From an uncultured bacterium (GTDB lineage Bacteria > Patescibacteriota > Patescibacteriia > CAIQCM01): 64,000 nt of DNA. Shown one piece after another: positions 4,084 through 62,671 of the stretch. Positions within the stretch are counted from its first letter, which is position 1. Every line of letters starts with the position of its first letter. A program made the position numbers and the translations under genes. The stretch spans positions 1,061,443-1,125,442 of the forward strand of contig OY970181.1 in NCBI GenBank assembly GCA_963708045.1, written 5' to 3'. The notes below the pieces were generated by a model. That model did not search any database. It had not been told where the DNA came from and was given only the letters and a program-made list of their open reading frames with translations.

Positions 4084-5685
4084 TTAAGGACTAACTTGCT
4101 CCGCTTCTGGCGGAACGGTAACCGGCCGAACCGGCAAATCGGCGCTGATAATTTCCGGCTTGGTAACATTACTTAAGTCCAGTGGATATGATTCGGTTTT
4201 CCAATAGCCAGGGTGAGTAACTGTCACATAATATGTATTTTTCCCGACCAAAAAATAATATCGCCCGCGGCGGTCAGAAATTTGCGTTTCCACAAGTTTG
4301 TTATAAGGCAAAGAAAACAAGCGGACAACGGCGTGGGCGATCGGCTTGGATGTAACTTCGTCCGAAACCACGCCCCAGCGGCCGCGATTTTTTACTTTTG
4401 AAAGCCGCTTTAAAAATAAATAAAAAACCAGTTGTAACCCGAGAATCACCCCCATATAAATTCCCGGTTTAGCGGCAAAAGAAAAAGCCGCCAAACAAAA
4501 ACTTGAAAGCGCGACGATGTTCCCAATTTTGTTCTTTAAATATTTTTTAACCAGAACGACATCGCCGACTGCTTCCGCCGCCGCGTCAACGGGAATTGCC
4601 GGGCTAACCGCCGTTTGTTCGCTCGCGCCAAATTCCGAACCAAAATACAGCGCGCCAAAGTCAGGATCGCTTTCGGCGCCCGCCATATTTTTTGACGGAA
4701 AAGAAAACCCCGGCTTGGTAACTTCTAGGCGATATTTTCCTTGTGGCGCCAAAAACATAAAACGACCGCTCGTGTCAGTGACTTTTGTCGCAATAACGCG
4801 ATTGGTCGTGGCGTCAACTAAACGCACGATTGCGAGATCAACCGGCAATCTGGTTCCAGAATTAAACACCACGCCCCAAGCCGCTTGGCGGCGACGGCGG
4901 CGAAAAAATAACGCCGGCTGAGTAAAAAACAGATACAAATAAAATCCGTATTGCGCCGTTGGCACTGAGCTCGCAGCAACGGCGACAACCGCAACCGTGC
5001 TCACTGGCGCCGCCGCTACTTCGGCCGTTGTTTCCACAATCGGATTATCTAAAACAACGCGCTTCGTAAGAATAATGGCGTTTACCGCGGGCATAACCGC
5101 CGTACCAACGGAAACCGCCGCCTCTTGTGTCACTCTTTTTTGCGTCGCGGCGGCGACCGCAGGCGGCGGATCAGCAAAACCCGACGGTGTTTCTATTTGC
5201 GCGCCAGCTTTTTGTCCGGAAAAATCGGTTTCTAAATAAAAACTAACGCGATAATTTAGACACGGCGACGCGTTACAGGCTGTGCCGTCAGAATTTAATG
5301 ATTCGTAAAGATAGTCCGCACCAAACGGTCCGGGGTTTTTGGGAACGTTAGAAAGATACACTTCGTCCTGCGGTGAATCGGTAAAACCGGCGGACGTTAA
5401 ATAATGACTGCCCGTTCCACCAAGAACCAAACCACCATCACCTCTAACGCCATCGGTCGGATACCCACCTGTGTCGTTTACGGAATATTCCAAAGCCTTA
5501 TGGATTGTATCCAAATTTGCAATCCGCGCCACGTCGCGCGACTTAGCACGGACGCTTTCATAAGAAACCGTAGCAATCGTGCTCATCAGTCCAATGATGC
5601 TGATGACGGTTAAAAGCTCAACCAAGGTAAAACCGCGATGATGCTTAGGTTGTAAGTTGTTGGTTGTAAGTTGTTGGGAAAACAT
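4084..5685 (-). CDS. type IV pilin-like protein (prepilin N-terminal methylation motif) with internal TM helices and carboxypeptidase-regulatory-like beta domains
   Basis: N-terminus ...RGFTLVELLTVISIIGLMSTIATVSY is a class III signal/pseudopilin motif. Two GRFMFLAPQGKYRLEVTKPGFSFPS / GRYYFLVGKNTYYVTVTHPGYWKTESYP segments resemble CarboxypepD_reg folds. Confidence 0.65.
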   Translation of the reverse strand: MFSQQLTTNNLQPKHHRGFTLVELLTVISIIGLMSTIATVSYESVRAKSRDVARIANLDTIHKALEYSVNDTGGYPTDGVRGDGGLVLGGTGSHYLTSAGFTDSPQDEVYLSNVPKNPGPFGADYLYESLNSDGTACNASPCLNYRVSFYLETDFSGQKAGAQIETPSGFADPPPAVAAATQKRVTQEAAVSVGTAVMPAVNAIILTKRVVLDNPIVETTAEVAAAPVSTVAVVAVAASSVPTAQYGFYLYLFFTQPALFFRRRRRQAAWGVVFNSGTRLPVDLAIVRLVDATTNRVIATKVTDTSGRFMFLAPQGKYRLEVTKPGFSFPSKNMAGAESDPDFGALYFGSEFGASEQTAVSPAIPVDAAAEAVGDVVLVKKYLKNKIGNIVALSSFCLAAFSFAAKPGIYMGVILGLQLVFYLFLKRLSKVKNRGRWGVVSDEVTSKPIAHAVVRLFSLPYNKLVETQISDRRGRYYFLVGKNTYYVTVTHPGYWKTESYPLDLSNVTKPEIISADLPVRPVTVPPEAEQVSP

Positions 5686-25285: not shown

Positions 25286-27568
25286 CTACGGACTAGCAGT
25301 CGCGTCAATGATGCAACCCCACTTTGGGATTTCCCGACAAACCTCACCCGACGCCGTCCGACACATTCCACAACCCGCGCGAACACAACCGTTAATCGTC
25401 CACGACCGCAGGCCAAAATAAATTCTCTGGCCCGCCGCCGTGATCACGTATGGCGTAAACTTGGTCAACTGAAGACCATCGGCCACAAGCGGCGTGTTGT
25501 TATTGGTTAGCGTGAGATTATCACTCCAAACAATTGGCGACACAACCGTTGTCTTGTGGTAACACGACGACACCCAGCACGAATCCAAATCAGCACCAAT
25601 CCCCGCTCCCACGTATGCCTCCGATACTGGCGGCGCTCCAGCAAGCCCATCAGCGAGCAAGCCTGTCACCACGATCGCCACCCTAATGTGCGGACCTTCG
25701 CGCGTGCAGGTAATTGTTCCCTGTGAAGGTGGCGGCTCACCCCATTCCGGCGAAAAAATAATCCCACCATCGGTAACTTCCGCATCGGCGAAAATCGCGA
25801 CGTCGCTTGTGGCAACGGCATCAAAATTCGCATCTGCCACACTCACATCAACACCGGCATCAGTTGACGAACCGCTACTACCACCGATTCCACCAGTACC
25901 ACCAGCGTCCAACGCCGAACCACCACTTCCACCAGAACTACTTGCTCCGCCAACAGAACCAGCACCACCGCTTGTTCCCCCGGAAACACCACCGGTTCCG
26001 CTTGTTCCGCCACTTGATGTACTTCCGCCGGTTGCCGAACTTCCACCAACACCACCAAGGCCACCGTCAGAATTTACAACAACAGCTTCACACCCATCGG
26101 CCGGATTATTGTTTGCGTCCGTCCAACCTGGCACACAGTGAAAGACAGCGCACTTCCCTAGAACGCAAGCGTCAACCGCCGAATGGCGGCTAAACCCCAG
26201 GTTTGGGAATGAACAATCATTTCCACACGCCCCGCAGTTCTTGGTGTCGTTTTCCAAATCCCATTCCAAGTCATCCACAACACCGTTGCAATCGTTATCG
26301 TGATGATCACACACCCTAACGCCATCTGTCGTCGACAAACAAGCGTACTCGCAACCGTCTTTGGGACGGTTGTTCGCATTCCAATAAAGCGGTTCACATT
26401 TCCCTATCTCACAAACCCCAGCAACACAGAGCGCGACGGCGTGATCAAAATCACACACCTTTCCACACTCTCCGCAATTCTTTGGATCATTTTGCTTGTT
26501 CCAAAGATCATCCACAATACCATTGCAATCATCATCCTTGCCGTTGCAAGTTTCAATTGTTGGGAGAACAACTTTGTTGACGACATCTTTGTCACACTCG
26601 GCCGGCCACACACCTTCCTTGCAGGTCATAATCCCAACACGACACTCGCCCAAGGTCAGAAGTTTCCCAGCCATATCGGTTGCGCCGCACGACCGTTGGT
26701 TACCATCGTGACATTCGCAACCATCATCAACGACACCACTGCAGTTGTTGTCAAGGTTGTCGTCACAACGCTCTTCGCTTGCTTTATTATGCGACCCATC
26801 TGGCGCAACCGAACAAATGACGCCGTTTTTTTCTTCGTTGCATTCATACACCCCGCCAACACAAACTCCAAGTCCATTGCAGGCGATCCCGACTGGGAAT
26901 CCTTCATCAGCAAACCCATTGCAGTTGTTGTCTTTGCCGTCGCAAATTTCTTTGGACGGTTTAGTGTCTCCGGCGCAGTCGGTCCACAAACCCTTAACGC
27001 ACACCTTTGTCCCTTCGTGACACGCGCCGATTTTTGATCCGCAAGCTATCTGTTCGCCTGTATGGAAAACGATGCCGTTTTCGTAACAAGGCGCGTCTTC
27101 GGGCGGAAGAACTTGAGTAACATTGATGATAATGACGCCCGGCGCGTCAGCCGCACCAGCATCCGGCGAAAAAGCAGCAGTACACTTCGTGAAACCTTTT
27201 CCGTCAAGCTCGCAATACTGTTTGCCCGACTCCTGATTTGGCTTATCGCCCGGGCGATAGCAGGCGCGGAACGAACCCGGAACGCAGTCAGACGGGTTTG
27301 CACTCGTCGCTGTTTCCGTTCCTGTTCCAATTATCGCAACCGTGTTGGTAACAACATTAGTTACCGTGCTCGCCGTCGCGATCGCGGAACTCGTTCCCGA
27401 TCCCGTCGCGATTGTTGACGACGTTGACGTTGTCGCCACTCCGGTTTCCGTGGTTGTGCAAATGCTTGTTCCCGAGGACGAGTTTGTTCCAGCTTTGCTT
27501 GTCGTTTTGACTTGTCCTCCACAGCCAATTACGAACACCAAAATTCCAAACCAGTACCTTTGCTTCAT
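25286..27568 (-). CDS. Cys-rich lipoprotein with MopE-like (CxxCxGxDxDCDGxxDE) repeats
   Basis: Lipobox LVFVIGC. Repeats ETCNGKDDDCNGIVDDLW, ERCDDNLDNNCSGVVDDGCEC, EICDGKDNNCNGFADEGF, RVCDHHDNDCNGVVDDLEW. GGS/T-rich linker. Confidence 0.65.
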   Translation of the reverse strand: MKQRYWFGILVFVIGCGGQVKTTSKAGTNSSSGTSICTTTETGVATTSTSSTIATGSGTSSAIATASTVTNVVTNTVAIIGTGTETATSANPSDCVPGSFRACYRPGDKPNQESGKQYCELDGKGFTKCTAAFSPDAGAADAPGVIIINVTQVLPPEDAPCYENGIVFHTGEQIACGSKIGACHEGTKVCVKGLWTDCAGDTKPSKEICDGKDNNCNGFADEGFPVGIACNGLGVCVGGVYECNEEKNGVICSVAPDGSHNKASEERCDDNLDNNCSGVVDDGCECHDGNQRSCGATDMAGKLLTLGECRVGIMTCKEGVWPAECDKDVVNKVVLPTIETCNGKDDDCNGIVDDLWNKQNDPKNCGECGKVCDFDHAVALCVAGVCEIGKCEPLYWNANNRPKDGCEYACLSTTDGVRVCDHHDNDCNGVVDDLEWDLENDTKNCGACGNDCSFPNLGFSRHSAVDACVLGKCAVFHCVPGWTDANNNPADGCEAVVVNSDGGLGGVGGSSATGGSTSSGGTSGTGGVSGGTSGGAGSVGGASSSGGSGGSALDAGGTGGIGGSSGSSTDAGVDVSVADANFDAVATSDVAIFADAEVTDGGIIFSPEWGEPPPSQGTITCTREGPHIRVAIVVTGLLADGLAGAPPVSEAYVGAGIGADLDSCWVSSCYHKTTVVSPIVWSDNLTLTNNNTPLVADGLQLTKFTPYVITAAGQRIYFGLRSWTINGCVRAGCGMCRTASGEVCREIPKWGCIIDATASP

Positions 27569-27857: not shown

Positions 27858-29654
27858 CTATGGCTGGCGGACAAACCCACCGGTCATTGACTTGCAAATC
27901 CCAGTGACCGCCAACCCCTGAACACCTTCCATTGAATTCTGCAACCAGCGGTCAGCAGTTGCAGGACCGACACCGACCAAGTTGAACACTTGGCCGATGT
28001 TCTGTATCGGCATCACCGGAATTTCGTAGCGAGCCAGGGCTCCCCACGTTGCCGTTGCACAGTAGCTACGACTTCCCCACGTTCCCAGCGCGTCACCCTC
28101 AAAACACACCTGCGTCGGTGTACCGAAAGCGCTGTTTATCCCCTGCCCCATCATATTGTCCGTGGTAAGACCTAGACCTGCGACGCCGTAAAGCGTGATG
28201 TAGACGCTGGATCCAACCAACTGACAATCCAGAGCTGCGACTGCGCCAGCCGGAACCGGTGAAGGTGCCGGGCGACCATCTGTCGTCGCGTCGTGTGACA
28301 CGATTGTGTCTGGACTTCCAGCGTCGGGAGTTGTTCCCGTACCAGTGGAAGTTGCCGTCGCGGTCAAAGTGACCGTTACGGCATCAGGCGTGCCGGCGTC
28401 CACGGTGGTCGCTGTACCCGTGCCAGTTCCCGTTCCGGTTCCGGTACTAGTCGGAGTTGACGTTGTCGTCGTCCCCGTACTTGTCGCCGTGACCGTTGCC
28501 GTCGCTGCTGTACCTGTTCCAGTTCCAGTCGCCGTGGACGTTCCCGATGGTTCACAAACCACCTTAAGAACCCCACCCACCAAACGACACACAAACCGTC
28601 CGTTATAGACTCCAGATGATGGCGAGCATTCCTCACCTTTCCTAACCAAATCCCCATCAAACTGACAGAGTGAGATTCCGGCGTCCACAGTGGTCGCCGT
28701 GCCTGTTCCGGTTCCGGTTGAAGTCGGAGTTGACGTTGTTGACGTCGTCCCCGTGCTCGTTGCCGTTACCGTTGCCGTCGCCGTGATACCTGTTCCCGTT
28801 CCTGTTCCTGTCGTCGTGTTTGTTGGAACGCTTGATGGTTCACATACCACCTTGAGGGTTCCACCAATCTGACGACACACATACCGACCGCTATCAACTC
28901 CCGGCGTTGGCGAACAAGTTTCACTCCTCCGAACCAAATCCCCATCCGCCAAACAGGTCGGAACAACAACTTCAATCCCCGTACCGGTGGAGGTTGCCGT
29001 AGCCGTGACGACTATTGCCGTTGCGATCGCGGTTCCCGTCGTGTTTACACCCGACGGTTCGCACTTCATCTGAAGACCAGACGAAGTCGTTCGGCAAACA
29101 AACCTTCCATTGTCCACTCCCGGCGTTGGCGAGCAGGAGACACCCCTACGAACCAACTCCCCCTCGGCCGTGCAGGGATTTTCAACAACCACGTTGATGA
29201 TGACCGTACTGTCTACGTTCGCTGCACTGTCGGCAGTCTGAACGATTCCGCCGTCAGTAGGACACCCTTTGCACTCACCCCAGACATTCTCCCTGGTGCA
29301 AGTCTTGACCCCAAGTCCACTACCATCACAGTCACACTGCAACGTAGTGTTCGTGGAGCACTGCAGCACGATGATCTGCGCGTCCAACTTGGGCGCGATG
29401 ATCACGGTGTCCGGCGTTGGCGCGGGTGCGTCAACGGTGACGATTGGCGCCGCATCAACGGGCGCATCAGGAACGGTGACGACGATTGGAGCTGTGTCAG
29501 CGGACTGAGTGCCCGTATCAACAGCGACCTTCACGTCACTGCGGCCGGCGTCGGCCTTGGTTGCGGGTTTATCACCCGCGATTTCAGCGCCGCAGCCGAT
29601 GGTCAGGAACAACGAAACGATTCCGAAACACGATACAAGACGATTGGACTTCAT
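27858..29654 (-). CDS. Thr/Gly-rich lipoprotein with three tandem ~45-aa Cys domains
   Basis: Revised start MKSNRLVSCFGIVSLFLTIGC (AGGAGG 5 nt upstream). Three copies of C..GDLVRR...CSPTPGVD.GR.VCR...G.LKVVCEPS. Long (TG)n/TGTGTATAT tracts. Confidence 0.65.
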   Translation of the reverse strand: MKSNRLVSCFGIVSLFLTIGCGAEIAGDKPATKADAGRSDVKVAVDTGTQSADTAPIVVTVPDAPVDAAPIVTVDAPAPTPDTVIIAPKLDAQIIVLQCSTNTTLQCDCDGSGLGVKTCTRENVWGECKGCPTDGGIVQTADSAANVDSTVIINVVVENPCTAEGELVRRGVSCSPTPGVDNGRFVCRTTSSGLQMKCEPSGVNTTGTAIATAIVVTATATSTGTGIEVVVPTCLADGDLVRRSETCSPTPGVDSGRYVCRQIGGTLKVVCEPSSVPTNTTTGTGTGTGITATATVTATSTGTTSTTSTPTSTGTGTGTATTVDAGISLCQFDGDLVRKGEECSPSSGVYNGRFVCRLVGGVLKVVCEPSGTSTATGTGTGTAATATVTATSTGTTTTSTPTSTGTGTGTGTGTATTVDAGTPDAVTVTLTATATSTGTGTTPDAGSPDTIVSHDATTDGRPAPSPVPAGAVAALDCQLVGSSVYITLYGVAGLGLTTDNMMGQGINSAFGTPTQVCFEGDALGTWGSRSYCATATWGALARYEIPVMPIQNIGQVFNLVGVGPATADRWLQNSMEGVQGLAVTGICKSMTGGFVRQP

Positions 29655-29857
29655 GACGATCCTCCTTGAAATGGTTGGGGTTGGCATACCGCCCCTTCTA
29701 TACAGATTGTGATCCACGGTATGCCAACCGCGGGAAATACGAGGCATCTTTTTATGCCCTTGGATAGAGTAAAACCCCCTCCAAACGCACAAAATTAGCT
29801 ATTTTTATAACTCACTAATCTATCACAAAATGACGGATTTGTCAACACCCCCCCGAA

Positions 29858-29996: not shown

Positions 29997-31250
29997 CTAC
30001 AACGGATTGAGGGAGAAAAAGAGCTTGAGGGTTTCGTCGTAGCCGCAGTTTCCACTGCGGACGAGCGCGGAGTTGTTACTCCAGCGCTCCTTGCCGTCCA
30101 CTGTCCTAACCCCAACGACAGTGATTCGGTTCTTTGCCGCCGGCATTGGCAGTCCTTGCCAAGTGTACGTCGTCCCGGCGATGTACGGTTTGCAGAGTGT
30201 CCGCAAGCCTTCCCACCCACCAAGCGGATCACCCACCAGGCACACCCGCGAAATGTCGCCGGTCTGATACAGATTTCCGAGAACGTCGCCGCTCACGGTA
30301 ACTGTACCAACATTCGCACTTGTCACCGTACAACTCACGTAAGCACTTCCACCGTTTGATGGCGGAAGTCCACCCGAGCATACGGTCCAACTCGGCACGC
30401 CATTATCCAGAACACACGTCTGCGTGCAACCAACATTGCCATTCGTACACTGACACGCAACTGTCCAATTGATAGGCGTCGTGCCGCACGTATTACAGCT
30501 GTTCGTGCAACTGCAACCACAGCTTGTGCTTGTTGCCGCCGTCGTGCCGCCAGTTGACGTTGAGTTGCCACCAGCGCCGCCGGTTGCCGGAGGATTTGAC
30601 ACCGCCGACCAAGTAAAGGGCGGAGTGCTCTGGTTCTGCACACAGGTCTGCGTGCAACGATTGGTGCCGTCCGAGCAGGTGACGTTTGAAAGTACCCTGC
30701 CCAAATGCGCCGCGTCACACACGAATGGATCAATGACTGATGTCATAGAACCACCCGTCGCCGTCGTGCCGCCAGTTGCCGTCGTTCCACCCGTGGCCGT
30801 ACTGCCACCCTTTGGCGGACAGATACAGTCACTTACCGGACCACCCACGCCCTCACACTTTTGCACACCACTCTTTTGACCGACATCTCCGGCGCAGAAG
30901 CACTGAATGGTTACGCCTTTTGCAGAACAATCGGTCAAGCCGCCGACCGGTGTGGTCGTCGTGGCCGTCGTGCCGCCGGTTGGTGTCGTGCCGCCCGCTG
31001 CCGTGGTCGTGGCGACCGATGAGCTTCCGCCTGTGGCCGGTGTCGTGGTGCTGGTCGCGGTCGTATTTCCGCCGGTCGGTGTTGAGGTTGAACTAGCCGT
31101 TGCCGATGAACCTCCTCCCGATCCAGCCGTTCCAGCATCAGCCGTCACAACTTTCTTGTTGACCGCTTCCTCGGCGCCGCAACCGGTGCCGACAATGACG
31201 GGGCCGCTGCCCAAGAGAACTGCGAGAACCAAATACCGATACGTGTTCAT
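29997..31250 (-). CDS. Thr/Gly/Cys-rich lipoprotein
   Basis: Revised start MNTYRYLVLAVLLGSGPVIVGTGC. T/G/A-rich linker, many Cys. C-terminal domain weakly similar to the C-terminus of the 27858 protein. Confidence 0.6.
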   Translation of the reverse strand: MNTYRYLVLAVLLGSGPVIVGTGCGAEEAVNKKVVTADAGTAGSGGGSSATASSTSTPTGGNTTATSTTTPATGGSSSVATTTAAGGTTPTGGTTATTTTPVGGLTDCSAKGVTIQCFCAGDVGQKSGVQKCEGVGGPVSDCICPPKGGSTATGGTTATGGTTATGGSMTSVIDPFVCDAAHLGRVLSNVTCSDGTNRCTQTCVQNQSTPPFTWSAVSNPPATGGAGGNSTSTGGTTAATSTSCGCSCTNSCNTCGTTPINWTVACQCTNGNVGCTQTCVLDNGVPSWTVCSGGLPPSNGGSAYVSCTVTSANVGTVTVSGDVLGNLYQTGDISRVCLVGDPLGGWEGLRTLCKPYIAGTTYTWQGLPMPAAKNRITVVGVRTVDGKERWSNNSALVRSGNCGYDETLKLFFSLNPL

Positions 31251-31472
31251 GATGGTACCCTCTTCTTTCTGGACTGTGTCTAGAATCATACCGCCACTAT
31301 GACGGTTTCTTGTCTAGCTGTTTGGTTGTTGGTTGACTGTTTTAGTTTGGATTTTTACAAGGTACGTATGCGCTGGCATTTTTTAATCCCAGAGCGTATG
31401 TATCTTGAAAATTGAGGCGAGGGATGGATAAGTGCGAACCACCTATCCATCCCTCCCTGACGACGTTGGAAT

Positions 31473-32903
31473 CTAGAAGATTCCGCGACCGTCTGCCCGT
31501 GCTCCCTTTGGAGCGGGCTTTTCGTCTTCGTATGGGTCTATATCTTCTTCATCATCTACCGATTCAGCAACAGCCGCTGACGTTGTCTTGACGTTGTTGT
31601 TGTTGTTGAAGAAGCTCGCGCCGATGAAGCCCATGGCTCCGTAAGCGCTTTCAGTGCTAGACCCGCCACTCTTTAGGTGACCTCCCACAAACACTTGCAC
31701 GCCGGGGATGAGCACTACTTTTCCAACACGGATTCGGAAGTCCACACCCGCCACTCCGCCGATTTCCGCGTGAAGGAACTTGAGTCCCTCCGTAATTCCG
31801 ATCGGGATGTACGCCACTCCGAACCGAAGTCCAGCATAGTCGTTCATCCAGTAGCGCAAGCCGCCTTCAACGAGTCCGGAAAAGTACTTCTTTTGTCCGT
31901 TCCCGTTCTCGTCAATGACGAGCTCACCGTTTGCGTCGGTCTTCCTCACGCCAGGAACGCCGATCCCCACTTGTGTGTAGAGATCAAAGTTCTGGGTGAG
32001 TTCAAATGCCCCACCGACTGCCAGAACTGCACCGGAATACTTGAAGCTATTAGACATCATCCCCAAGAACTTGAGCTCCAAGGTGAAATGCGCAACAACT
32101 CCACTCCGTCCGTCCCGACCATCTCTACCATCCTTTCCAACCACTGCAGCAACCGGCTTCACGACGACCGTGGGCTTTGGCACACATTGCCATTTGCCAT
32201 CTATCTGTCCCTCCATCATTCCCGCAACACCGGAACAGTCGCAGCGATCAGCTGGCAGATTTTGCCCTCTGGTGTTTTCGCAGACTGTCTTCGGAACAAT
32301 TGCCGGATCCCAACCCATCTTGGCCAAAACCGAAGGTTGATCAACGCCGCCAACAGTCACGGTTACGGTCACCGTACCCTCGCCACCCTTCTTGTCAAAG
32401 GCAGTGAGCTTTATTGCCTTCTGAGCAACGCCATCAGTGATGAAGTTGCTAAGAATCGCGGTGTCACGAATGGTTTTGCCTTCCGTCAAGCACCCGACAC
32501 AAGACTCGTGAACCATAATGTCCGGATACTTCTTCGCGCCCTTGCCAAGTTTCTGCTTGGCAATGCCGGTCACTCTGAGCTTGAGCTCAACGGTTTTCTC
32601 GTTCGCCACGTTTGACGTAAACTGCGGATCCAGTTGGATCATGATTTCCTCGGGCGGCGGGACAACGACTGGCGCTGCCTTTGGCGCGCGAGGTGCTCGG
32701 GGCTTCACGGCGCGACAAGTGTTCCCGTCTTCGCTGGCTTTAAACCCAGCCGGACATTGACAGTGCGGGCAACCGTTTGGTTGCCACTCCGCGCCGGTTG
32801 CCGATTCCCGACACCTTTGCGAATTGCTCTTTTCGGCACGAGCTGAAGAAACCATCCCCAAAATCACGAACAAAATCACGGACGATAGCGTTGTCTTCCT
32901 CAT
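31473..32903 (-). CDS. secreted Cys-rich protein with collagen-like GKDGRDGRDGRSG segment and beta-rich C-terminal domain
   Basis: Signal peptide MRKTTLSSVILFVILGMVSSARA. C-terminal ~200 aa show an alternating hydrophobic pattern consistent with beta strands. Confidence 0.55.
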   Translation of the reverse strand: MRKTTLSSVILFVILGMVSSARAEKSNSQRCRESATGAEWQPNGCPHCQCPAGFKASEDGNTCRAVKPRAPRAPKAAPVVVPPPEEIMIQLDPQFTSNVANEKTVELKLRVTGIAKQKLGKGAKKYPDIMVHESCVGCLTEGKTIRDTAILSNFITDGVAQKAIKLTAFDKKGGEGTVTVTVTVGGVDQPSVLAKMGWDPAIVPKTVCENTRGQNLPADRCDCSGVAGMMEGQIDGKWQCVPKPTVVVKPVAAVVGKDGRDGRDGRSGVVAHFTLELKFLGMMSNSFKYSGAVLAVGGAFELTQNFDLYTQVGIGVPGVRKTDANGELVIDENGNGQKKYFSGLVEGGLRYWMNDYAGLRFGVAYIPIGITEGLKFLHAEIGGVAGVDFRIRVGKVVLIPGVQVFVGGHLKSGGSSTESAYGAMGFIGASFFNNNNNVKTTSAAVAESVDDEEDIDPYEDEKPAPKGARADGRGIF

Positions 32904-52937: not shown

Positions 52938-54056
52938 CTAGTTACGTTTCACCACGCAAAAGACCACCCTATCGCCGACCATAACAGCTACAACACTATA
53001 CAGCTTGCCGGAAGCATCAATAACGAGGGAGGCGTAATCCATACCAGGGCGGCCGATTTCGCTCCAGGTGGAGCCGTTCCATTCGGCCACAAAGAAATGT
53101 CTGTCAGCGTCGGTAGATTCTCCCATGACATAGATGTTGCCGCTCATAGGATCAATGGCAATACTCTCAATTCCACTATTCGCATTCATGATGCCAACTT
53201 CGCTCCAGGCCATGCCATCCCATTTTGCCAAGTATCTTGATCCACTCCACGAATTGACCCCATTAGTGAAGCTACCACCAGCATATATATTGCCACCGGC
53301 ATCAATAGCGAGGACATCGATGTCGTTATTTGCATTAAGGTTGCCAAGTGCACTGACAGCGTTGCCATCCCACCGAGCCACATACTTGTATCCACCCTCA
53401 TCAGTGGCGCCATTGGAAAATTCTCCTGCGGCATATTGGATACTGCCCGACGCATTGGTTACGTAAGTTTTGATACGGCTGTTCGGCGCGAATCCGGTAA
53501 AGATGGTGCTCCATGCGGTCCCGTTCCATTTTTTGTTGCCGTTATAAACATTGCCGACGGCATCGGCGATAATATACAAGGTGCTGTCGCCGCCCCTGAT
53601 TTCGCTCCAGGCCGTGCCATCCCACTTTGCCATAAATTTGTATCCATCAAAATCATAAAAATCTCCGACGGCATAGACATTGCCAGCAACATCGGTAGCA
53701 ATGGAGAAGATGGTGCCATTTGCATTAAGGCTGCCGAGCTCACTCCATGAAGTGCCGTTCCATTTGGCTACATACTGGTATCCGCCGGCATTGGTGAAGG
53801 ATCCTGCGGCATAGACATTGCCAGCAGCATCAGTCGCGAGTTTCCAAATCGCGCCATTAAACGAAGTACCCAACTTGGCCCATCCAGTGGGGATGCATTC
53901 CCCATTGCCACTGTCATAGGAACCACTGCTGCAGAATTCGCCGTCGCCAACACCTACTCCACCACCGCCATATCCAGGATCGTCGTTCGGCGTCTTAGTC
54001 AAACTGCAACCTATGGTCAACATAACGGCAATAATCAAACATACCCAGTTTCGCAT
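52938..54056 (-). CDS. lipoprotein with SBBP-like beta-propeller repeats
   Basis: Revised start MRNWVCLIIAVMLTIGC. Repeats of ~50 aa: AGNVYAAGSFTNAGGYQYVAKWNGTSWSELG (x6-7). Confidence 0.65.
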   Translation of the reverse strand: MRNWVCLIIAVMLTIGCSLTKTPNDDPGYGGGGVGVGDGEFCSSGSYDSGNGECIPTGWAKLGTSFNGAIWKLATDAAGNVYAAGSFTNAGGYQYVAKWNGTSWSELGSLNANGTIFSIATDVAGNVYAVGDFYDFDGYKFMAKWDGTAWSEIRGGDSTLYIIADAVGNVYNGNKKWNGTAWSTIFTGFAPNSRIKTYVTNASGSIQYAAGEFSNGATDEGGYKYVARWDGNAVSALGNLNANNDIDVLAIDAGGNIYAGGSFTNGVNSWSGSRYLAKWDGMAWSEVGIMNANSGIESIAIDPMSGNIYVMGESTDADRHFFVAEWNGSTWSEIGRPGMDYASLVIDASGKLYSVVAVMVGDRVVFCVVKRN

Positions 54057-54377
54057 CTTGGTATCCTCCAATTGTCAACAAGCCGAGACAGCTAAGCTAT
54101 CCCCAAGTTTTTTACGCTTGCCGCTATCTCTGAAAAAACAGAAACAGGCGCAAACAGAAAAAATTAGAACGGTTAAAAAATACAACCTTTTAAGTAAAAT
54201 GTCAAGATTGGCTAATATAAAAAATCCTACTTTGATCAGCAGTATTTTGTACAAAACACCCAAGGTTCAAGTTGTAACAACGGTGCTATTTTATAATATT
54301 TAAAAAAGGTCGGGTAAGCGCTATAAGGCGCAGACCCGACCTTGGTAGAATCGATAACCCCGATTTAGGGTTCTTCT

Positions 54378-55644: not shown

Positions 55645-57018
55645 TTAATATCTTGCCGGGCAACCCTTAAGGCGCGACGCGAATTCTTCCAAGTATTTCG
55701 GGTTTATGTCGTAAGATGTGAAAGAACCGCCTATATGCGCTTTATTTCCAAGACCTTCGATATCAACCGCATGCAGCAATTCATGAATAATGGTGTTCTC
55801 ACGCCACACGCTGGGATCAGTTTTTGACATATTGGATGCGTTAATACTGTGACAGGCGTAGATTTGCCGTTCCGGCGAGAACTCACAAACATCCGCTGGA
55901 TTATTCCGGCATTCGCCCTTCGTAGGCTTATCACTTACTCTTTCGTTTCCCGGAAAAACCATAAAATTGTAGCCGCAGGCACCGACCAGATGATCCCAGT
56001 CAACGAGAGCAATGGTCGCATGACGCTGAGCTTCGGAGTTGGGCATCCAAAACCCAAATTCATTGCAATACGCAGTATCGGCCGGCGCCGGCACCCATTG
56101 CGAACCTCCGCCCATGCTCCAGCCGGAGCCCATCTTAGAAAAGACAATGAACGCCTCCGGAGGATCAGACGTGCGCAAGTATGCGGATGCCCAATTCACC
56201 ATATTTAAATATCCTTCGTCGGCGGTGATCTCCGTTCCGAACGAAACGCGGATTATTTTCTGCAGTTTCAATTTCACGCTCGCCCTCTGAGACAACGAAA
56301 GCTGCACACCGCTCATGACTTTAAGTACATCATCGTCGGAAAGGTAACCAAAACCACCCCACCGATGGTTGTCCTGCAGATAGGTTGAAGTATCGATGAC
56401 CACGAGGGCATCCAGAGCGTGATCGTTCTGGGCACAGACCACGTCCGCGGATCCACAAGGAGGTTTCGCAGGCTGAATGGCAGGAGCGGAGGTTGGGGTG
56501 TTAGGACGTGGTATGACATCTAAGACGCCAAGGTCGGCCAATCTCCCTTCTTCAATTTTGTTGAGGTCGCTCGCGTTTATGCCCAAACCCAAGAGTCGCA
56601 TTGCATGGTAAGCCACCACTCCATCCTTAAGATACATCGCGCGGCATTTGGTCGGATCGACATACCAGGCTTCGCCATGCTGTTGCACCTGCAGGAGAAT
56701 GCGACCCTTCTGCCGGTTGGCGAACGGATTAGCCGCGCAGGCCGAAGACGAGGCGTTCATGGCCGCCGCGTCGGCAACAACAGAGATCTTTGAAAGGTCG
56801 GCGTCGGTGATGCCGAGCCCGGATGAACGCATCAGCTCAAATGCGACTGAACCATCCTTGAGGTAATAACGCCGCGAATCCACCGGATTAACATACCAGG
56901 CTTCGCCATGTTGTTGCACCTGCAGGAGGATACGGCCACGTAAACGTGCCGCCAAAACGGAATCATAAGCACTCACGCCGGTTATGGGAACAAGCGATAA
57001 TCCCATGGCTGTTATCAA
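55645..57018 (-). CDS. secreted protein with two ~50-aa repeats (GRILLQVQQHGEAWYV...YLKDG...GLGI) and C-terminal HExxH (zincin-like) domain
   Basis: Repeats shared with the 59281-60726 protein. TIIHELLHAVDIEG motif near C-terminus. Confidence 0.6.
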   Translation of the reverse strand: MITAMGLSLVPITGVSAYDSVLAARLRGRILLQVQQHGEAWYVNPVDSRRYYLKDGSVAFELMRSSGLGITDADLSKISVVADAAAMNASSSACAANPFANRQKGRILLQVQQHGEAWYVDPTKCRAMYLKDGVVAYHAMRLLGLGINASDLNKIEEGRLADLGVLDVIPRPNTPTSAPAIQPAKPPCGSADVVCAQNDHALDALVVIDTSTYLQDNHRWGGFGYLSDDDVLKVMSGVQLSLSQRASVKLKLQKIIRVSFGTEITADEGYLNMVNWASAYLRTSDPPEAFIVFSKMGSGWSMGGGSQWVPAPADTAYCNEFGFWMPNSEAQRHATIALVDWDHLVGACGYNFMVFPGNERVSDKPTKGECRNNPADVCEFSPERQIYACHSINASNMSKTDPSVWRENTIIHELLHAVDIEGLGNKAHIGGSFTSYDINPKYLEEFASRLKGCPARY

Positions 57019-57067
57019 AATAAATAACCGTGCGACTTTTTTTAGAGATTCAGTAAGTAAGTGCGTA

Positions 57068-57514
57068 TTATTGGATTAACAATTTTCTTTGAACCATTTC
57101 GTTGAACAATTTAAAATTTTTGCCGGATAATTTCAGCCTGACAATCCCCGCTTCCGACCATGACTTTTCTTTACCGTTGGGAAAAACGATCGTGCCTCCA
57201 ATGATCCCTTTCTTTATTTGTATTTGTGCAAGCGTGTTTTTTGAAAAAACAAAATGCTGCATTGAACCATTCAAGACAGCATCAAGGTTTTGTTTCACCG
57301 CCTGTTTTGAATCATGCGACGCGACAATGTCGCTAACCACGCTCGCCACTACCAAAAGACCACTGCCTACGCCCACCCCCACCGCCGATCCAGTTTGGAC
57401 AAAATAAATACTGTCGCCTGTTTCCAGAATCGACCAATAGGCCATGGTTACAATTCCGGAAACTTTTATATTCGCGATCGTTGAAAGAATAGCTTGCTGA
57501 TTAGTTTCTATCAT
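57068..57514 (-). CDS. hypothetical protein
   Basis: 148 aa, one hydrophobic segment. No family recognised. Confidence 0.4.
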   Translation of the reverse strand: MIETNQQAILSTIANIKVSGIVTMAYWSILETGDSIYFVQTGSAVGVGVGSGLLVVASVVSDIVASHDSKQAVKQNLDAVLNGSMQHFVFSKNTLAQIQIKKGIIGGTIVFPNGKEKSWSEAGIVRLKLSGKNFKLFNEMVQRKLLIQ

Positions 57515-57557
57515 GTTGAGTAATAAAATAATAACCTCTTAAAGACTCGCGTGTGAT

Positions 57558-58061
57558 TTATTTTTTCTTCAGACCCCAATTGGCCGTAAACGGAACCCAA
57601 GCTCTGCTTACCAATTGATATTTAGCATAAAATACGACTCTCACAAAAGCTAATCCGACCAAAATCGTTAAAATTATGACCAAGCAGATGGTTGCGACAG
57701 TATCGGTGCGAGCGTTTTCCGGATTTTTTTTATCATAGACAACCTTCTTTGTATCTCCGACAACCGGTCTAGTTAATGGGAACGGAGAACTTTGGATGTA
57801 GTATTGTTTCCCGTCAGCCGCAACAAAACTGATACCCATGAGGATATCGCTTCCCTTGGTAGAAGCGCGCTTCTCTATACCAATGATCGTCCCCTGCGCC
57901 GTCGCGCCATTCGCATCAAATAAATAAAGTTGGCTAGCCCAATATCCACCCCCAACAATGCTTATGATACCTAATATTCCAAAACCTATTCTTACAAACA
58001 ATCTGACTGGTTTGTAGCCGTACAGAGGCTTGTTGGAAGTGCGTAAGGTCAAATTTGACAT
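57558..58061 (-). CDS. DUF3592-like membrane protein
   Basis: Two TM helices flank a beta-rich domain (GTIIGIEKR...YYIQSS...VYDKKNP), the architecture of DUF3592. Confidence 0.5.
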   Translation of the reverse strand: MSNLTLRTSNKPLYGYKPVRLFVRIGFGILGIISIVGGGYWASQLYLFDANGATAQGTIIGIEKRASTKGSDILMGISFVAADGKQYYIQSSPFPLTRPVVGDTKKVVYDKKNPENARTDTVATICLVIILTILVGLAFVRVVFYAKYQLVSRAWVPFTANWGLKKK

Positions 58062-58317
58062 GTTCGTATTATACCAAATTTACAAACCATGTCTCGTACC
58101 GATGAACGAGTAGAGACAAAAAATCACCCTTTTGCGGAATACGCAGTGGCCAATATTGACAAAAAGCTAATTTTATAGTATCCTACTCGGTTATCGGTGC
58201 CCTGCTGAATTACGAGAGAACCCTCTCTTAATTCAGAAGGTCATCGCCAAATTTGTTATCACCCGGCTTAACGGGCGACAGAGGCGGCATGATTCTTCGC
58301 CGAACAGGAGAACGGAA

Positions 58318-58728
58318 ATGGAAAACAGATATCTGCGCGCCGGACTAGCGACCAGCGGACAACTGTATGGTGAAAAAGTCGTGCCCGAACATCGCGACAT
58401 CACCATTGGGTGTTCGGCAAAAGCCGACTACGTAATCCCTGTCGGTCAAGACACACCGCTCGCGGCACAACACGTACTTTTCAGGCACACGAGCGAAGGA
58501 TATTTTCTGCAGACCACAGAAGAAATGACCGGTTCACTTGCCAGTGACTCCGAAACGCCCCGACAAATCACTGACCTTTCCAAGACAGCTGACCGCAAGA
58601 ACGGTTTCTACCAGATTCCGCTCGGCGACAACGCACGAGGCATGATCAAGATCGGTCAGGTCAAAATTCTCTTCCAGGTTTTAGAGTACACGCCACCCGC
58701 GGAGAGGGCGAAGAGAGCGCACAGTTAG
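58318..58728 (+). CDS. small FHA-like protein
   Basis: 136 aa. ITIGCSAKADYVIP...AAQHVLFRHTSEGYFLQ resembles an FHA core. Long structured 5' leader. Confidence 0.4.
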   Translation: MENRYLRAGLATSGQLYGEKVVPEHRDITIGCSAKADYVIPVGQDTPLAAQHVLFRHTSEGYFLQTTEEMTGSLASDSETPRQITDLSKTADRKNGFYQIPLGDNARGMIKIGQVKILFQVLEYTPPAERAKRAHS

Positions 58729-58908
58729 AACAACACAATAACAATCTCGCAACCCTGCACACGGTGCAGGCAACACTCCTTTGTGATGAATTCATAGAGG
58801 AGTGTTTTAATTTATCAAACTTTTTACCAAACCAAAAAACACACAGAGCAATGACAGCCCATTTTTTAGAATGACTTGATTACAAACGATTTGAATTTAT
58901 TAGGGTCA

Positions 58909-59154
58909 TTATTTTGGCTCAAGATACAAATACAAGATGCCGTTACCATCAATACCGCCCATAGACGCGGACCGAATCGGGAAGTAGCCGTCGGGCGGCA
59001 TGACGCCAACATTATGGAAACCTTTCGCAACTTCCGTGCAGATATCTCCATTATAATTAACCGTGTAGGGTATAATGCGCCCGCTGTCGAGCTCTTCAAT
59101 TGTCACGAAGACCGGTTTTTTTGTGATTTTATCCCTCACGCAAACTAGATTCAT
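58909..59154 (-). CDS. small beta-rich ORF, possibly a detached C-terminal fragment of the upstream gene
   Basis: 81 aa. Lies 126 nt downstream of the 59281 gene stop. Confidence 0.25.
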   Translation of the reverse strand: MNLVCVRDKITKKPVFVTIEELDSGRIIPYTVNYNGDICTEVAKGFHNVGVMPPDGYFPIRSASMGGIDGNGILYLYLEPK

Positions 59155-59280
59155 ACCGCGTTCTTGAAAGGTTTTACCTGCGACCGCGGTCGATTCGTCT
59201 AGGGTGCTATAATCTATCGTTAGGCTGGCCGTATATCCGCTCGGGGCTTCGAATTGGAAAAGGTCCTGACCGAGCGAAAT

Positions 59281-60726
59281 TCAATACGATCCATTGACCG
59301 GCAGAACGATAGTCACTTGGCCAGCGCTATCTGTCGCGGCAAATGCCGTTTCTCGGTTTGTATTTGTTACGATCGGCCCTGTGGCGTAGATCACCGTGTC
59401 GGCCTTTGGTAACCCAGACGCATCTTTATATGTAACGGCTGATTGCGTCTTGTTGGCGGAATTTTTTGCATAAGTAACTGCCGGGAAATACAATTTTTGC
59501 TCGGAGTTAACCGGCTGTGGATCTACTTGGACGATAATATTATCGCCCGGCTTAATGTTCATTACCGGATCGTAATTTAGCCAATCAATCCTTTGCGCGC
59601 TGAACGTAGCTGTTTCGCCGTCCGCGATTTCCAAAGTTATCTCACCGTTTATACTACTCTCTAGCACATCGCCGTTGGAGCAGCCACCACATCGGATATT
59701 GTGCCCGGGAATCACCAAGCCGGTCTTTTTATTTATTAATTTTACAGTTGCCGTACCGGTCTGCGGTTCGGGCAACGGATCAATCCTAATATCCCTTATC
59801 AAAAACTTCTGTTCCCCTCGGCCGCCATCACTCTTATTCCACGCGAGGGTGATGTAATTTGTTTTTGCGTCAGGCAAGCACTTGGCGTAACCATATAAGA
59901 TTATTTCTTTCTGGCTTAAGCTAGTGCCGAATCCTTCCTCGGGATTATAAGTCTTGCACTTACTATTCTCAATATTTTTGCTCGTAATACTCAATAAATT
60001 GGAGCCTTTAATGGTTATGGCGACACCTTCGGTATACACCAGATTAACCGCAAATGGAGATCCACTACCCGAAGATACATTGCCCGAAGATCCGTCATTT
60101 GAAGACGCATTCACTCTGGGTATTCTGGCTAAATCCGTGTTGGTAATACCGAGTCCCTGATAACGCATAATCGTGTAAGCCGCAGCGCCATCTTTCAGGT
60201 AATAACGACGGAGGGTAACTGGGTTCACATACCAGGCCTGGCCGCTCCTTTCCACATCCAGCAGAATCCGTCCGGAAAGGCGGCGCGTCTGGGCGCTGTC
60301 TGTCGCAATCTTGGTCTTTTTGGAAGACATCGGGTCGTAGCCGCCCCGTACCTCAACGCCGTCGGGGAATCCGTCATTGTCGCTATCAGCATTGTTCGGG
60401 TTGATTCCGATTGCGCGCTCAAACGAGTCGGACAAACCATCGCCATCGGTATCAGTGTCAACAAAACGGTCTTCAATTCCGATCGGTATTAAGGAGAGGT
60501 CGCGACCGGTTATTCCAAGACCATCCGACCTTAATAAGGAAAAAGCGGCATCGCCATTTTTAAGATATACCCGTTCCTGCGTGACCGGACTGACGTACCA
60601 AGCCTCGCCGGCAGATTGAACCTGCAGCAAAATACGGCCGATCGTATTGGTCGGCGCCGCGGCCGAGGACAGGGCGGGCGTCGCGATCATGGCACATAAC
60701 ATTATTAAAAAAATCGCTTTTCGCAT
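59281..60726 (-). CDS. secreted protein: two GRILL-type repeats separated by a TSP3-like Ca-binding D-rich linker, then Ig/CarboxypepD_reg-like C-terminal domains
   Basis: Signal peptide MRKAIFLIMLCAMIATPALSSAAA. DTDGDGLSDSFERAIGINPNNADSDNDGFPDGVEVRGGYDP. Repeats match those in the 55645 protein. Confidence 0.65.
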   Translation of the reverse strand: MRKAIFLIMLCAMIATPALSSAAAPTNTIGRILLQVQSAGEAWYVSPVTQERVYLKNGDAAFSLLRSDGLGITGRDLSLIPIGIEDRFVDTDTDGDGLSDSFERAIGINPNNADSDNDGFPDGVEVRGGYDPMSSKKTKIATDSAQTRRLSGRILLDVERSGQAWYVNPVTLRRYYLKDGAAAYTIMRYQGLGITNTDLARIPRVNASSNDGSSGNVSSGSGSPFAVNLVYTEGVAITIKGSNLLSITSKNIENSKCKTYNPEEGFGTSLSQKEIILYGYAKCLPDAKTNYITLAWNKSDGGRGEQKFLIRDIRIDPLPEPQTGTATVKLINKKTGLVIPGHNIRCGGCSNGDVLESSINGEITLEIADGETATFSAQRIDWLNYDPVMNIKPGDNIIVQVDPQPVNSEQKLYFPAVTYAKNSANKTQSAVTYKDASGLPKADTVIYATGPIVTNTNRETAFAATDSAGQVTIVLPVNGSY

Positions 60727-61803: not shown

Positions 61804-62082
61804 CTATACAGTGGCCGATGCATTAATCGTTTGAAAAGTCGTTTTTACGCTAAGGTTATCGCCTTCGATGATCTTTATCTTTGATGCGCCAAAATCGTTT
61901 TTTAGACCGGTAACGAATTCATCGGCCCATGACGGAGTAAGGACATTAACTTTGGAAAAATCCAATTCAATCGGCTCGTCGCCGTCTTTGGGAATATTAT
62001 AAGCGCGCGCACTTAAATACGCTTCGCGTCCGGCGGGGCGGGAAATAAGAGTTGTACCAAATTTGCTAATGTCGATTCTCAT
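61804..62082 (-). CDS. DUF4325 (STAS-like) domain protein, paralog of 9792-10097
   Basis: FGTTLISRPAGREAY ... LDFSKVNVLTPSWADEFVTGL. Confidence 0.7.
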   Translation of the reverse strand: MRIDISKFGTTLISRPAGREAYLSARAYNIPKDGDEPIELDFSKVNVLTPSWADEFVTGLKNDFGASKIKIIEGDNLSVKTTFQTINASATV

Positions 62083-62158
62083 ATATTTTTCTTAACCGAT
62101 AATTCTATATAGGTTCCATTGACCGATGTTTCCGATTCCGCAATATACCTAAACATGT

Positions 62159-62671
62159 CTATATTGTCCATATATGGCCAGTCAGTTTTAGTTCTGCATT
62201 GCCTGATATAAATATGAACGATTCCATTCCACGAAGAAGATCAAGCGAGCGAACCACGAATTTTAATCCGTTACCGCGCTGTTCCGGCGCGCGGCCGGTG
62301 ATGGTTTCGGTAAAGGCGACTTTGATCGCCTCGCTGTCATCTTTAAGACCGGGTCGCACCTGCCTAAGGGTCGTTAAAACCCCGCGACCCCGATCGGCGA
62401 TCTTCATTCGAAAAACATTTCCTTTAATTTCATATTCAAACCAGCAACCAGGGACATCGGGCCAATTTCCAAAATTGTGGTCAAAACAATTTCCCGTCAA
62501 TTCGCCGGCCATCGCCGCAAGCAACCCTGACTCATCATCCGACCAATTATGAGCAATAAATTCAGGCCGCATCTTTTCAACCCGCGCCTGCGCCACATCA
62601 CGCGCCTCGCAATAAAATTCCGACGCAGGACGAACTCCCTCTTTGGATTTTGCCCAATCTAATGCTTTCAT
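62159..62671 (-). CDS. GHKL (anti-sigma-factor-like Ser kinase/ATPase) domain protein, paralog of the C-terminal half of 9068-9805
   Basis: ELTGNCFDHNFGNWPD, ADRGRGVL, QRGNGLKFV. About 55-60% identical by eye over the ATPase domain. No HTH. Confidence 0.7.
   Translation of the reverse strand: MKALDWAKSKEGVRPASEFYCEARDVAQARVEKMRPEFIAHNWSDDESGLLAAMAGELTGNCFDHNFGNWPDVPGCWFEYEIKGNVFRMKIADRGRGVLTTLRQVRPGLKDDSEAIKVAFTETITGRAPEQRGNGLKFVVRSLDLLRGMESFIFISGNAELKLTGHIWTI

Follow-up and report, generated by a model that had tools for sequence, protein, structure and literature searches.

A paired repeat module on exported proteins of Parcubacteria-group Patescibacteria: a candidate anchor of extracellular proteins to the cell envelope

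Introduction

Short repeated non-catalytic units such as SLH, CW_binding_1/2, LysM, SH3b and PG_binding_1 are found on diverse secreted enzymes, at either end of the protein and with several paralogues per genome, and the type I dockerin is a small, internally duplicated module carried by many secreted enzymes. Here, we describe a module that follows the same logic, a pair of repeats of about 56 amino acids (aa) each, encoded by two neighbouring genes (A and B) in a 64,000-nucleotide stretch of DNA from an uncultured bacterium of the Patescibacteriota (contig OY970181.1, positions 1,061,443 to 1,125,442 of the forward strand; the whole stretch is referred to as the window). Patescibacteria account for a large share of bacterial diversity and they are widely inferred to be episymbionts. 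To our knowledge, almost nothing is known about how the surface of these tiny cells is organised or how they interact with their hosts.

Compared with the generic anchoring modules, the repeat matches none of their Pfam families, and its copy number is fixed at two. The LysM fold is βααβ and those of SLH and PG_binding_1 are helical, whereas the order predicted for the repeat is β-β-β-α-β-α. The dockerin resembles the module in its duplication, and one variant of the module (type II, see below) has Ca-binding segments as well; however, the predicted fold is a different one, the Ca-binding part belongs to an optional insert between the repeats, and no Pfam Dockerin match was obtained.

Regarding the fold, the closest known systems include the periplasmic repeats of EccB1 (ESX-1 type VII secretion; 3x3m) and PlyCB (4f87). 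In the PlyCB/EccB-repeat fold, a unit of about 50-70 aa forms a four-stranded β-sheet with two helices (PMC4769845), as is likewise predicted for the repeat described here. The repeats of EccB1 pack against one another (PMC4769845), and PlyCB binds the polyrhamnose backbone of the streptococcal wall polysaccharide (bioRxiv 10.1101/2021.03.19.436156). The wall-binding domain of the endolysin LysIME-EF1 is a tetrameric ring (PMC7098653). This domain and its counterpart in Lys170, both from endolysins of enterococcal phages, form homotetramers by means of an internal start site; the module, in contrast, is an intramolecular tandem pair and has no sequence similarity to them.

Genes A and B encode paralogous proteins with the same pair of repeats

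Gene A (55645..57018, minus strand; 457 aa) and gene B (59281..60726, minus strand; 481 aa) were taken from the list of open reading frames (ORFs) of the window. The product of A comprises a signal-like N-terminus, a type I repeat pair, a Pro/Thr linker and a zincin-like domain, and that of B a signal peptide, a type II pair with a TSP3 insert, a Ser/Gly linker and a C-terminal region. Public proteins identical to A (P0003, on a 1.19-Mb contig) and to B (P0123) are available. An earlier inspection of the window made without database searches (the sequence-only reading) had reported both ORFs and a motif doubled in each of them. Both observations were reproduced, with copies at residues 25-80 and 102-157 of A and 27-82 and 149-204 of B. 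The four copies of the repeat are 50-64% identical in pairwise comparisons over 56 residues, and BLASTP of A against B gave E=2e-31. The consensus of the repeat is R-L-x-G-R-I-L-L-Q-V-x-x-x-G-E-A-W-Y-V-x-P-x-x-x-x-R-Y-Y-L-K-D-G-x-x-A-Y-x-x-M-R-x-x-G-L-G-I-T-x-x-D-L-x-K-I.

All parts of both pairs lie on the minus strand. In A, repeat 1 (56779..56946; profile domain match 1.9e-35), for which a β-β-β-α-β-α order is predicted, is separated from repeat 2 (56548..56715; 3e-34), which contains Cys125, by a 21-aa linker with Cys94 (56716..56778). A Pro/Thr-rich interdomain linker (aa 158-196; 56431..56547), recognised from its sequence, follows. In B, repeat 1 (60481..60648; 6.8e-32) and repeat 2 (60115..60282; 5.1e-34) flank a 66-aa insert with two bacterial TSP3 repeats (60283..60480). 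A profile made from the four copies found no further copy of the repeat when the window was searched in six-frame translation. Genes A and B are separated by 2.2 kb, a gap that holds small membrane-protein and hypothetical-protein genes, one of them on the opposite strand. A and B are paralogous neighbours that form no obvious operon.

The repeats form an obligate pair with two main linker variants

Exactly two copies of the repeat were present in 249 of the 252 repeat proteins fetched and in all 83 ORFs from genome loci (83/83), so the repeats are an obligate pair. Across proteins, the identity between first repeats, and likewise between second repeats, was about 0.70, compared with 0.59-0.60 between a first and a second repeat, irrespective of whether both came from the same protein or from different ones. 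This positional orthology argues for a pair that has been inherited and shuffled as a unit. Since repeat 1 is closer to repeat 1 of other proteins than to its own repeat 2, and the same is true of repeat 2, the duplication is old.

Linker and position classes were counted over 250 family members; A and B are examples of the two main linker variants. The 21-aa linker of A (type I) occurred in 131 of the 250. A cysteine in the linker and a cysteine in repeat 2 were both present in 132 members and both absent from 109, while nine proteins had the linker cysteine only and none had the repeat-2 cysteine only; in alignment A3, neither C77 nor C108 varies. This covariation implies a disulfide staple, and the two cysteines, C94 and C125 in A, are thus predicted to form a disulfide bond. 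About 81 of the 250 members were of type II, as B, with a homologous and well-conserved insert of 63-67 aa that contains two TSP3 repeats and shares the pattern DxDxDGLxDxxE…DxDGDG. Type III members have a linker of 12-13 aa.

The insert of B had been described as thrombospondin type 3-like in the sequence-only reading, and its DTDGDGLSD and DSDNDGFPD stretches indeed match Pfam TSP3_bac (PF18884; E=6.6e-13, 48.7 bits against a cut-off of 25, two stretches). This match, which spans residues ~92-128 of B, was also obtained for 37 of 96 other family members. To judge from these motifs, the insert would bind Ca2+. Compared with the bacterial TSP3 repeat in general, the TSP3 pair is here a conserved insert that replaces the linker inside the repeat pair of another domain, an arrangement of which we found no description in the literature searched.

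Conservation of the repeats is very strong: the effective number of sequences (Neff) is 2.6, and about 20 positions, among them G, W and several Y, hardly vary. Genomes carry several paralogues: there are two in the 64-kb window and at least four loci in the metagenome-assembled genome (MAG) JAPLYC01. At three genome loci (L018, L019 and L044), two module genes adjoin on the same strand, which suggests local tandem expansion.

The module belongs to a large family without a curated model

An exhaustive HMMER profile search of 1.84 billion cluster representatives (clusters of 50% identity) retrieved 3,503 representatives that carry the repeat (E≤1e-3), of which 1,972 reach E≤1e-30, and two stretches were matched in nearly all of them; a profile that retrieves so many representatives places the repeat far beyond chance. 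Full-length A as the query gave at least 1,376 matches. Among the matches listed, nearly all were due to the repeat pair alone, and a source that had a name was, with few exceptions, given as Patescibacteria, Parcubacteria, Uhrbacteria or Buchananbacteria. A single 56-aa repeat used as the query in a word-indexed homologue search, a method that is weak for short queries, returned 2 matches.

At least 587 loci with the module were found in a scan of GTDB species genomes. Eighty of them include Uhr-, Falkow-, Magasanik-, Buchanan- and Komeilibacteria, which NCBI places in the Parcubacteria group, together with unclassified Patescibacteria. About 24 of these 80 loci are titled ‘uncultured Gammaproteobacteria bacterium’ and come from one co-assembly project (binchicken/SRP MAGs), including a 1.0-Mb chromosome (OZ246408.1), and a few others are titled Kapaibacterium, Syntrophales, Muribaculaceae, Rhizobiaceae or Tepidanaerobacteraceae. 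We suspect that the titles outside the Patescibacteria belong to mislabelled or mis-binned Patescibacteria contigs.

The sequence-only reading had been unable to assign the repeat to a family, and this stood: there was no significant match in Pfam-A, NCBIfam or PDB sequences, and a match to SLH or CW_binding, which was looked for in the Pfam scans, was not found. Searches of PDB by sequence and by profile, for which A, B, the module and the zincin domain served as queries, gave nothing significant (nothing below E=1.9 in a profile search), and no description of the repeat was found in the searchable literature. The repeat pair is a major, uncurated and lineage-restricted extracellular module whose reach goes far beyond the two proteins of the window.

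An extra Pfam scan of 45 modules at E≤10 returned several candidates that were rejected. SH3_15 (13 of 45 modules, best E 0.006) gave short, sub-threshold matches, DUF4785_2nd (35 of 45) and GtfA_EBD gave matches that were short and at the level of a hairpin or sub-threshold, Choline_bind_4 was sub-threshold (2 of 45, E 0.66), and the alpha-lytic protease prodomain (10 of 45, best E 0.003) stayed far under its gathering score.

Carriers of the module are predicted to be exported and have diverse partner domains

The module was N-terminal, just after the signal peptide, in 111 proteins, C-terminal in 119 and internal in 20. A signal-like N-terminus was recognised by a crude hydrophobicity heuristic in 212 of 242 Met-starting carriers (~88%), and the carriers are thus predicted to have signal peptides. 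Partner domains were collected from the Pfam annotation of 120 matches and from a scan of 96 further representatives. Peptidases were represented by Trypsin_2/Trypsin, Peptidase_S8 and Peptidase_C25, and other enzymes by Amidohydro_2, arylsulfotransferase, NAGPA, GH6, SNase and DsbA/thioredoxin. Further partners were CAP with SH3_3/SH3_4, LTD, Calx-beta, CARDB, PKD, fn3, LVIVD and PG_binding_1, and many partner regions belonged to no family. There are also small proteins barely larger than the module itself (P0134 and P0124). The diversity of the partners and the placement at either end fit a general-purpose non-catalytic module of extracytoplasmic proteins.

The pair is predicted to be one compact unit

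An AlphaFold2 (AF2) model of residues 18-160 of A, computed from a 45-sequence alignment, reached a mean local confidence (pLDDT) of 90.6 and a predicted TM score (pTM) of 0.83. According to the DSSP assignment of this model, each repeat has the order E-E-E-H-E-H (β-β-β-α-β plus a short α), with one main helix. The high pTM points to two repeats packed in a fixed arrangement, and the pair is confidently predicted to be a compact pseudo-dimeric unit made of small α/β repeats.

Weak fold matches to the model were obtained for EccB1 (3x3m; score 4.7), the wall-binding domain of the LysIME-EF1 endolysin (6ist; 4.5 and 4.4), a C-terminal domain from S. mutans (3l9a; 3.9), the C-terminal domain of TagH (5bnd; 2.9), the wall-binding domain of Lys170 (7d55; 2.9) and PlyCB (4f87; 2.5). 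This weak resemblance of the model to wall-binding folds is a lead that agrees with the domain architecture and is no proof of homology.

Proposed function of the module and alternative explanations

We propose that the pair is a mobile module without catalytic activity that works outside the cytoplasm and is placed on either end of Sec-exported proteins of Parcubacteria-group Patescibacteria. It would hold these exoproteins non-covalently at the surface of the producer through its affinity for a conserved polymer of the envelope, which could be peptidoglycan or a wall glycopolymer. The two repeats would be kept in register by a disulfide-stapled 21-aa linker in the A type and by a 64-aa Ca2+-binding TSP3 insert in the B type. 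Such anchoring would parallel that of SLH, LysM, SH3b and endolysin wall-binding domains in other monoderm bacteria. A would then be a zinc metallopeptidase that is tethered at the surface and belongs to an orphan family resembling metzincins, and B would tether its C-terminal region to the surface. Retention at the surface best fits the signal peptides, the disulfide and Ca2+ features, the mobility between termini, the diverse passengers, the paralogues, the conservation and the wall-binding fold neighbours taken together. The sequence-only reading had suggested a cell-wall or ligand-binding module, possibly one that targets an extracellular metallopeptidase, and such a role agrees with the domain architecture and with the weak fold matches. 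We infer from these features a binding function, with an envelope polymer as the ligand; the extreme conservation argues for one conserved ligand. We are fairly confident that the module is non-catalytic and extracellular and serves binding or targeting in general, and we see an about even chance that it anchors exoproteins to an envelope polymer.

Several results weigh against this anchoring. No match to SLH, CW_binding_1/2, LysM, SH3b, PG_binding_1 or choline-binding families of Pfam was obtained at E≤1 for the repeat in A or B, and a repeat profile built from 499 sequences, when compared with PlyCB by hhalign, returned a probability of 1%. Peptidoglycan hydrolases do not stand out among the partners, unlike what is known for many classical wall-binding modules, and some members already have SH3 or PG_binding_1 domains, so that the module may bind something else. 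In addition, a Foldseek search of the module against the viral structure predictions of BFVD gave nothing significant (best E 1.1). No relatives of the module were found in IMG/VR either, which leaves a phage origin, or any connection with phage lysins, without support.

A function similar to that of dockerins, in which the pair would plug exoenzymes onto a conserved surface scaffold protein (S-layer, pilus or cohesin-like) and not onto a glycan, agrees with the occurrence of a small duplicated module at either terminus of unrelated secreted enzymes, GH6 and proteases among them, with the several paralogues per genome, with the calcium-binding segments of one subclass and with the extreme sequence conservation. 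We nevertheless regard it as unlikely, given that Dockerin_1 was not matched in the Pfam scans, the predicted β3-α-β-α fold is not an F-hand pair, the TSP3 Ca-binding segment is an optional part outside the repeat, no candidate receptor family was identified, and the nearest fold matches are wall-binding domains and not cohesin partners. The pair could also bind the surface of the episymbiont's host, so that proteases and other enzymes would be delivered to the envelope of that host. The episymbiotic lifestyle attributed to Patescibacteria, the degradative or scavenging nature of the passengers and the weak resemblance in fold to phage lysin domains, which recognise the wall of a target cell, are consistent with it. 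However, the module is ~60-70% identical across candidate phyla with presumably different hosts, where one would expect an adhesin that is specific to the host to have diversified, and no relatives were found in viral contigs and viral structure predictions, which makes this explanation improbable. The same conservation suggests that the ligand is the producer's own or a universal, peptidoglycan-like one, and not a receptor of a particular host.

Multimerisation of the attached enzymes without binding of the envelope, by analogy with PlyCB octamers and LysIME-EF1 tetramers, seems very improbable to us: dozens of unrelated families of monomeric enzymes have no obvious need for the same oligomeriser, the pairing interface is already satisfied intramolecularly in the AF2 model, and in the precedents the formation of the multimer serves wall binding. 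Its attraction lies in the fold neighbours, PlyCB and the wall-binding domains of LysIME-EF1 and Lys170, which form ring-like oligomers (PMC7098653), in the packing of the EccB1 repeats against each other and in the small proteins that consist of little more than the module (P0134, P0124). A pro-domain, that is, an intramolecular chaperone or an inhibitor of the attached peptidase, could be suspected from the position of the pair ahead of the putative metallopeptidase in A and from the sub-threshold matches to the alpha-lytic protease prodomain mentioned above. This is extremely improbable, and largely refuted by the domain architectures, as the module is equally often C-terminal and is also found on proteins that are not peptidases (CAP, thioredoxin, nuclease, GH6, amidohydrolase).

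The pair might constitute a general surface-display system of Parcubacteria-group Patescibacteria, a counterpart in this lineage of SLH and dockerin modules, by which much of the exoproteome is tethered to one conserved envelope polymer or scaffold with two interchangeable clamps, the disulfide and the Ca2+-loaded TSP3 insert. We put this forward tentatively, with somewhat more doubt than belief. It would mean that the module defines the set of surface-exposed enzymes and provides a specific affinity tool with which these uncultivated cells could be labelled or captured. The module indicates which enzymes probably stay at the surface, its existence predicts a conserved ligand in the envelope that biochemical work could identify, and it could serve as a probe for the uncultivated cells. 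It also deserves a curated family model, since its carriers are now annotated only by their passenger domain or as hypothetical proteins.

The C-terminal domain of A is a putative orphan metallopeptidase

The C-terminal zincin-like domain of A (putative metzincin fold) comprises aa 197-457 (55648..56430, minus strand), with an HExxH motif at 55771-55785. The TIIHELLHAVD stretch that the sequence-only reading had placed after the repeat pair is present there and contains H412, E413 and H416. Among 5.8 billion proteins, homologues of aa ~197-457 of A were limited to two other clusters (P0254/P0255/P0256 and P0074), and a metagenome pattern scan for relatives of the domain found none, so that the family consists of three clusters. 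Locus L081 (6001-7374) is also listed for the HExxH domain. Invariant across the three clusters are H412, E413, H416, D419, G424, E445 and seven cysteines. In the relatives, the domain follows other N-terminal regions, which in P0255 comprise a lipoprotein signal, Cys-rich repeats and an acidic linker; these differing contexts indicate that the zincin-like domain is an independent module.

Pfam peptidase families gave no match, even at E≤10, to the C-terminus of A, to P0255 or to P0074. The closest known proteins are metzincins of the adamalysin/reprolysin type (atrolysin C, ADAMs, ADAMTS) and archaemetzincin. The family has HExxHxxD…G in place of the extended metzincin motif HExxHxxGxxH/D: where metzincins have Gly, it has the invariant D419, and the residue at the +6 ligand position varies (G in A, H in P0254, E in P0074). 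TMCP of P0254 and SMCP of P0074, which resemble a Met-turn, align with DINP in A, in a part where the model is unreliable. The AlphaFold model of the A C-terminus, built from three sequences, had a pLDDT of 54 and a pTM of 0.64, with values of 72-91 in the N-terminal α/β half and poor values in the rest; its residues 1-16 (A 185-200, which overlap the end of the Pro/Thr linker) were below 50. In this model, HExxH sits in a predicted helix (218-233). E445 could serve as a ligand of the gluzincin type. We consider it likely that the domain is a zincin with a metzincin-like fold, in which D419 or E445 may be the third ligand, and that it represents an orphan family. The domain may have peptidase activity and constitutes a small new candidate family of metallopeptidases.

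The start of gene A is irregular

The signal-peptide region of A (56968..57045, minus strand) was delimited from the sequence, an alignment made by eye to the signal-peptide parts of P0009 and P0004 and the hydrophobicity heuristic. Its h- and c-regions (…GVSA/YDS) lie downstream of the listed start codon, TTG 57018, and an in-frame n-region (KKVAR) lies upstream of it. The signal peptides of the homologues, MKHRLFFTLVVLAVCSFPVAAGASA/YDSALAARL, align with the upstream frame of A, L-KKVARLFILITAMGLSLVPITGVSA/YDSVLAARL, residue for residue, and a CTA codon (57043-57045) occupies the position of their start Met in A. Within 57006-57075 (minus strand), A has no canonical start codon at the point from which these homologous peptides extend. 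The upstream frame contains no ATG, GTG or TTG before TTG 57018, and the public annotation (P0003, 453 aa) starts later still, at ATG 57006. The first usable starts, TTG 57018 and ATG 57006, would both give a signal peptide that lacks a basic n-region. A frameshift or an alternative start that restores the full signal peptide was looked for and none was found. It is possible that A uses a non-canonical start, that it has a truncated signal without a basic n-region or that its start is damaged.

Protein B and its C-terminal region

B has, as judged from its sequence, a clear Sec signal peptide, MRKAIFLIMLCAMIATPALSSAA (60658..60726, minus strand), with a hydrophobicity heuristic of 2.97 and a basic n-region. 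Downstream of the repeat pair, a Ser/Gly linker (aa 205-223) leads to the C-terminal region (aa 224-481, 258 aa), both encoded at 59284..60114 on the minus strand. This region, in which the sequence-only reading had placed Ig-like domains that are here putative, had no Pfam or NCBIfam match at gathering score, the only weaker Pfam match being to DUF4537 (E 0.18). None of the 256 proteins fetched was homologous to it, and a search for internal repeats found none. At 61804-62671 (minus strand), a 92-aa STAS-like DUF4325 protein is encoded directly downstream of a 170-aa protein that belongs to no family, and the same pair of genes adjoins a homologue of gene B on a Logan contig.

Other features of the window

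Just downstream of gene A, the gene at 52938-54071 (minus strand) encodes a 377-aa protein with a hydrophobic, lipoprotein-like N-terminus and repeated ‘W(N/D)G…WS’ units. It gave weak β-propeller matches (Rax2, 8.4e-07; SBBP) and is probably a further surface protein. Between 28000 and 32000, the GC content is 0.55-0.56, compared with about 0.46 elsewhere. The rise covers three large ORFs on the minus strand (27858-29792, 29997-31289 and 31473-32903), which have no Pfam match beyond a cEGF-like Cys motif, and the neighbouring 760-aa ORF (25286-27568) has Cys-rich motifs of the MopE type. Finally, the 533-aa product encoded at 4084-5685 (minus strand) has the N-terminal methylation motif of type IV pilins, followed by SdrD_B and CarboxypepD_reg β-sandwich domains, and may be a large pilin-like surface protein.

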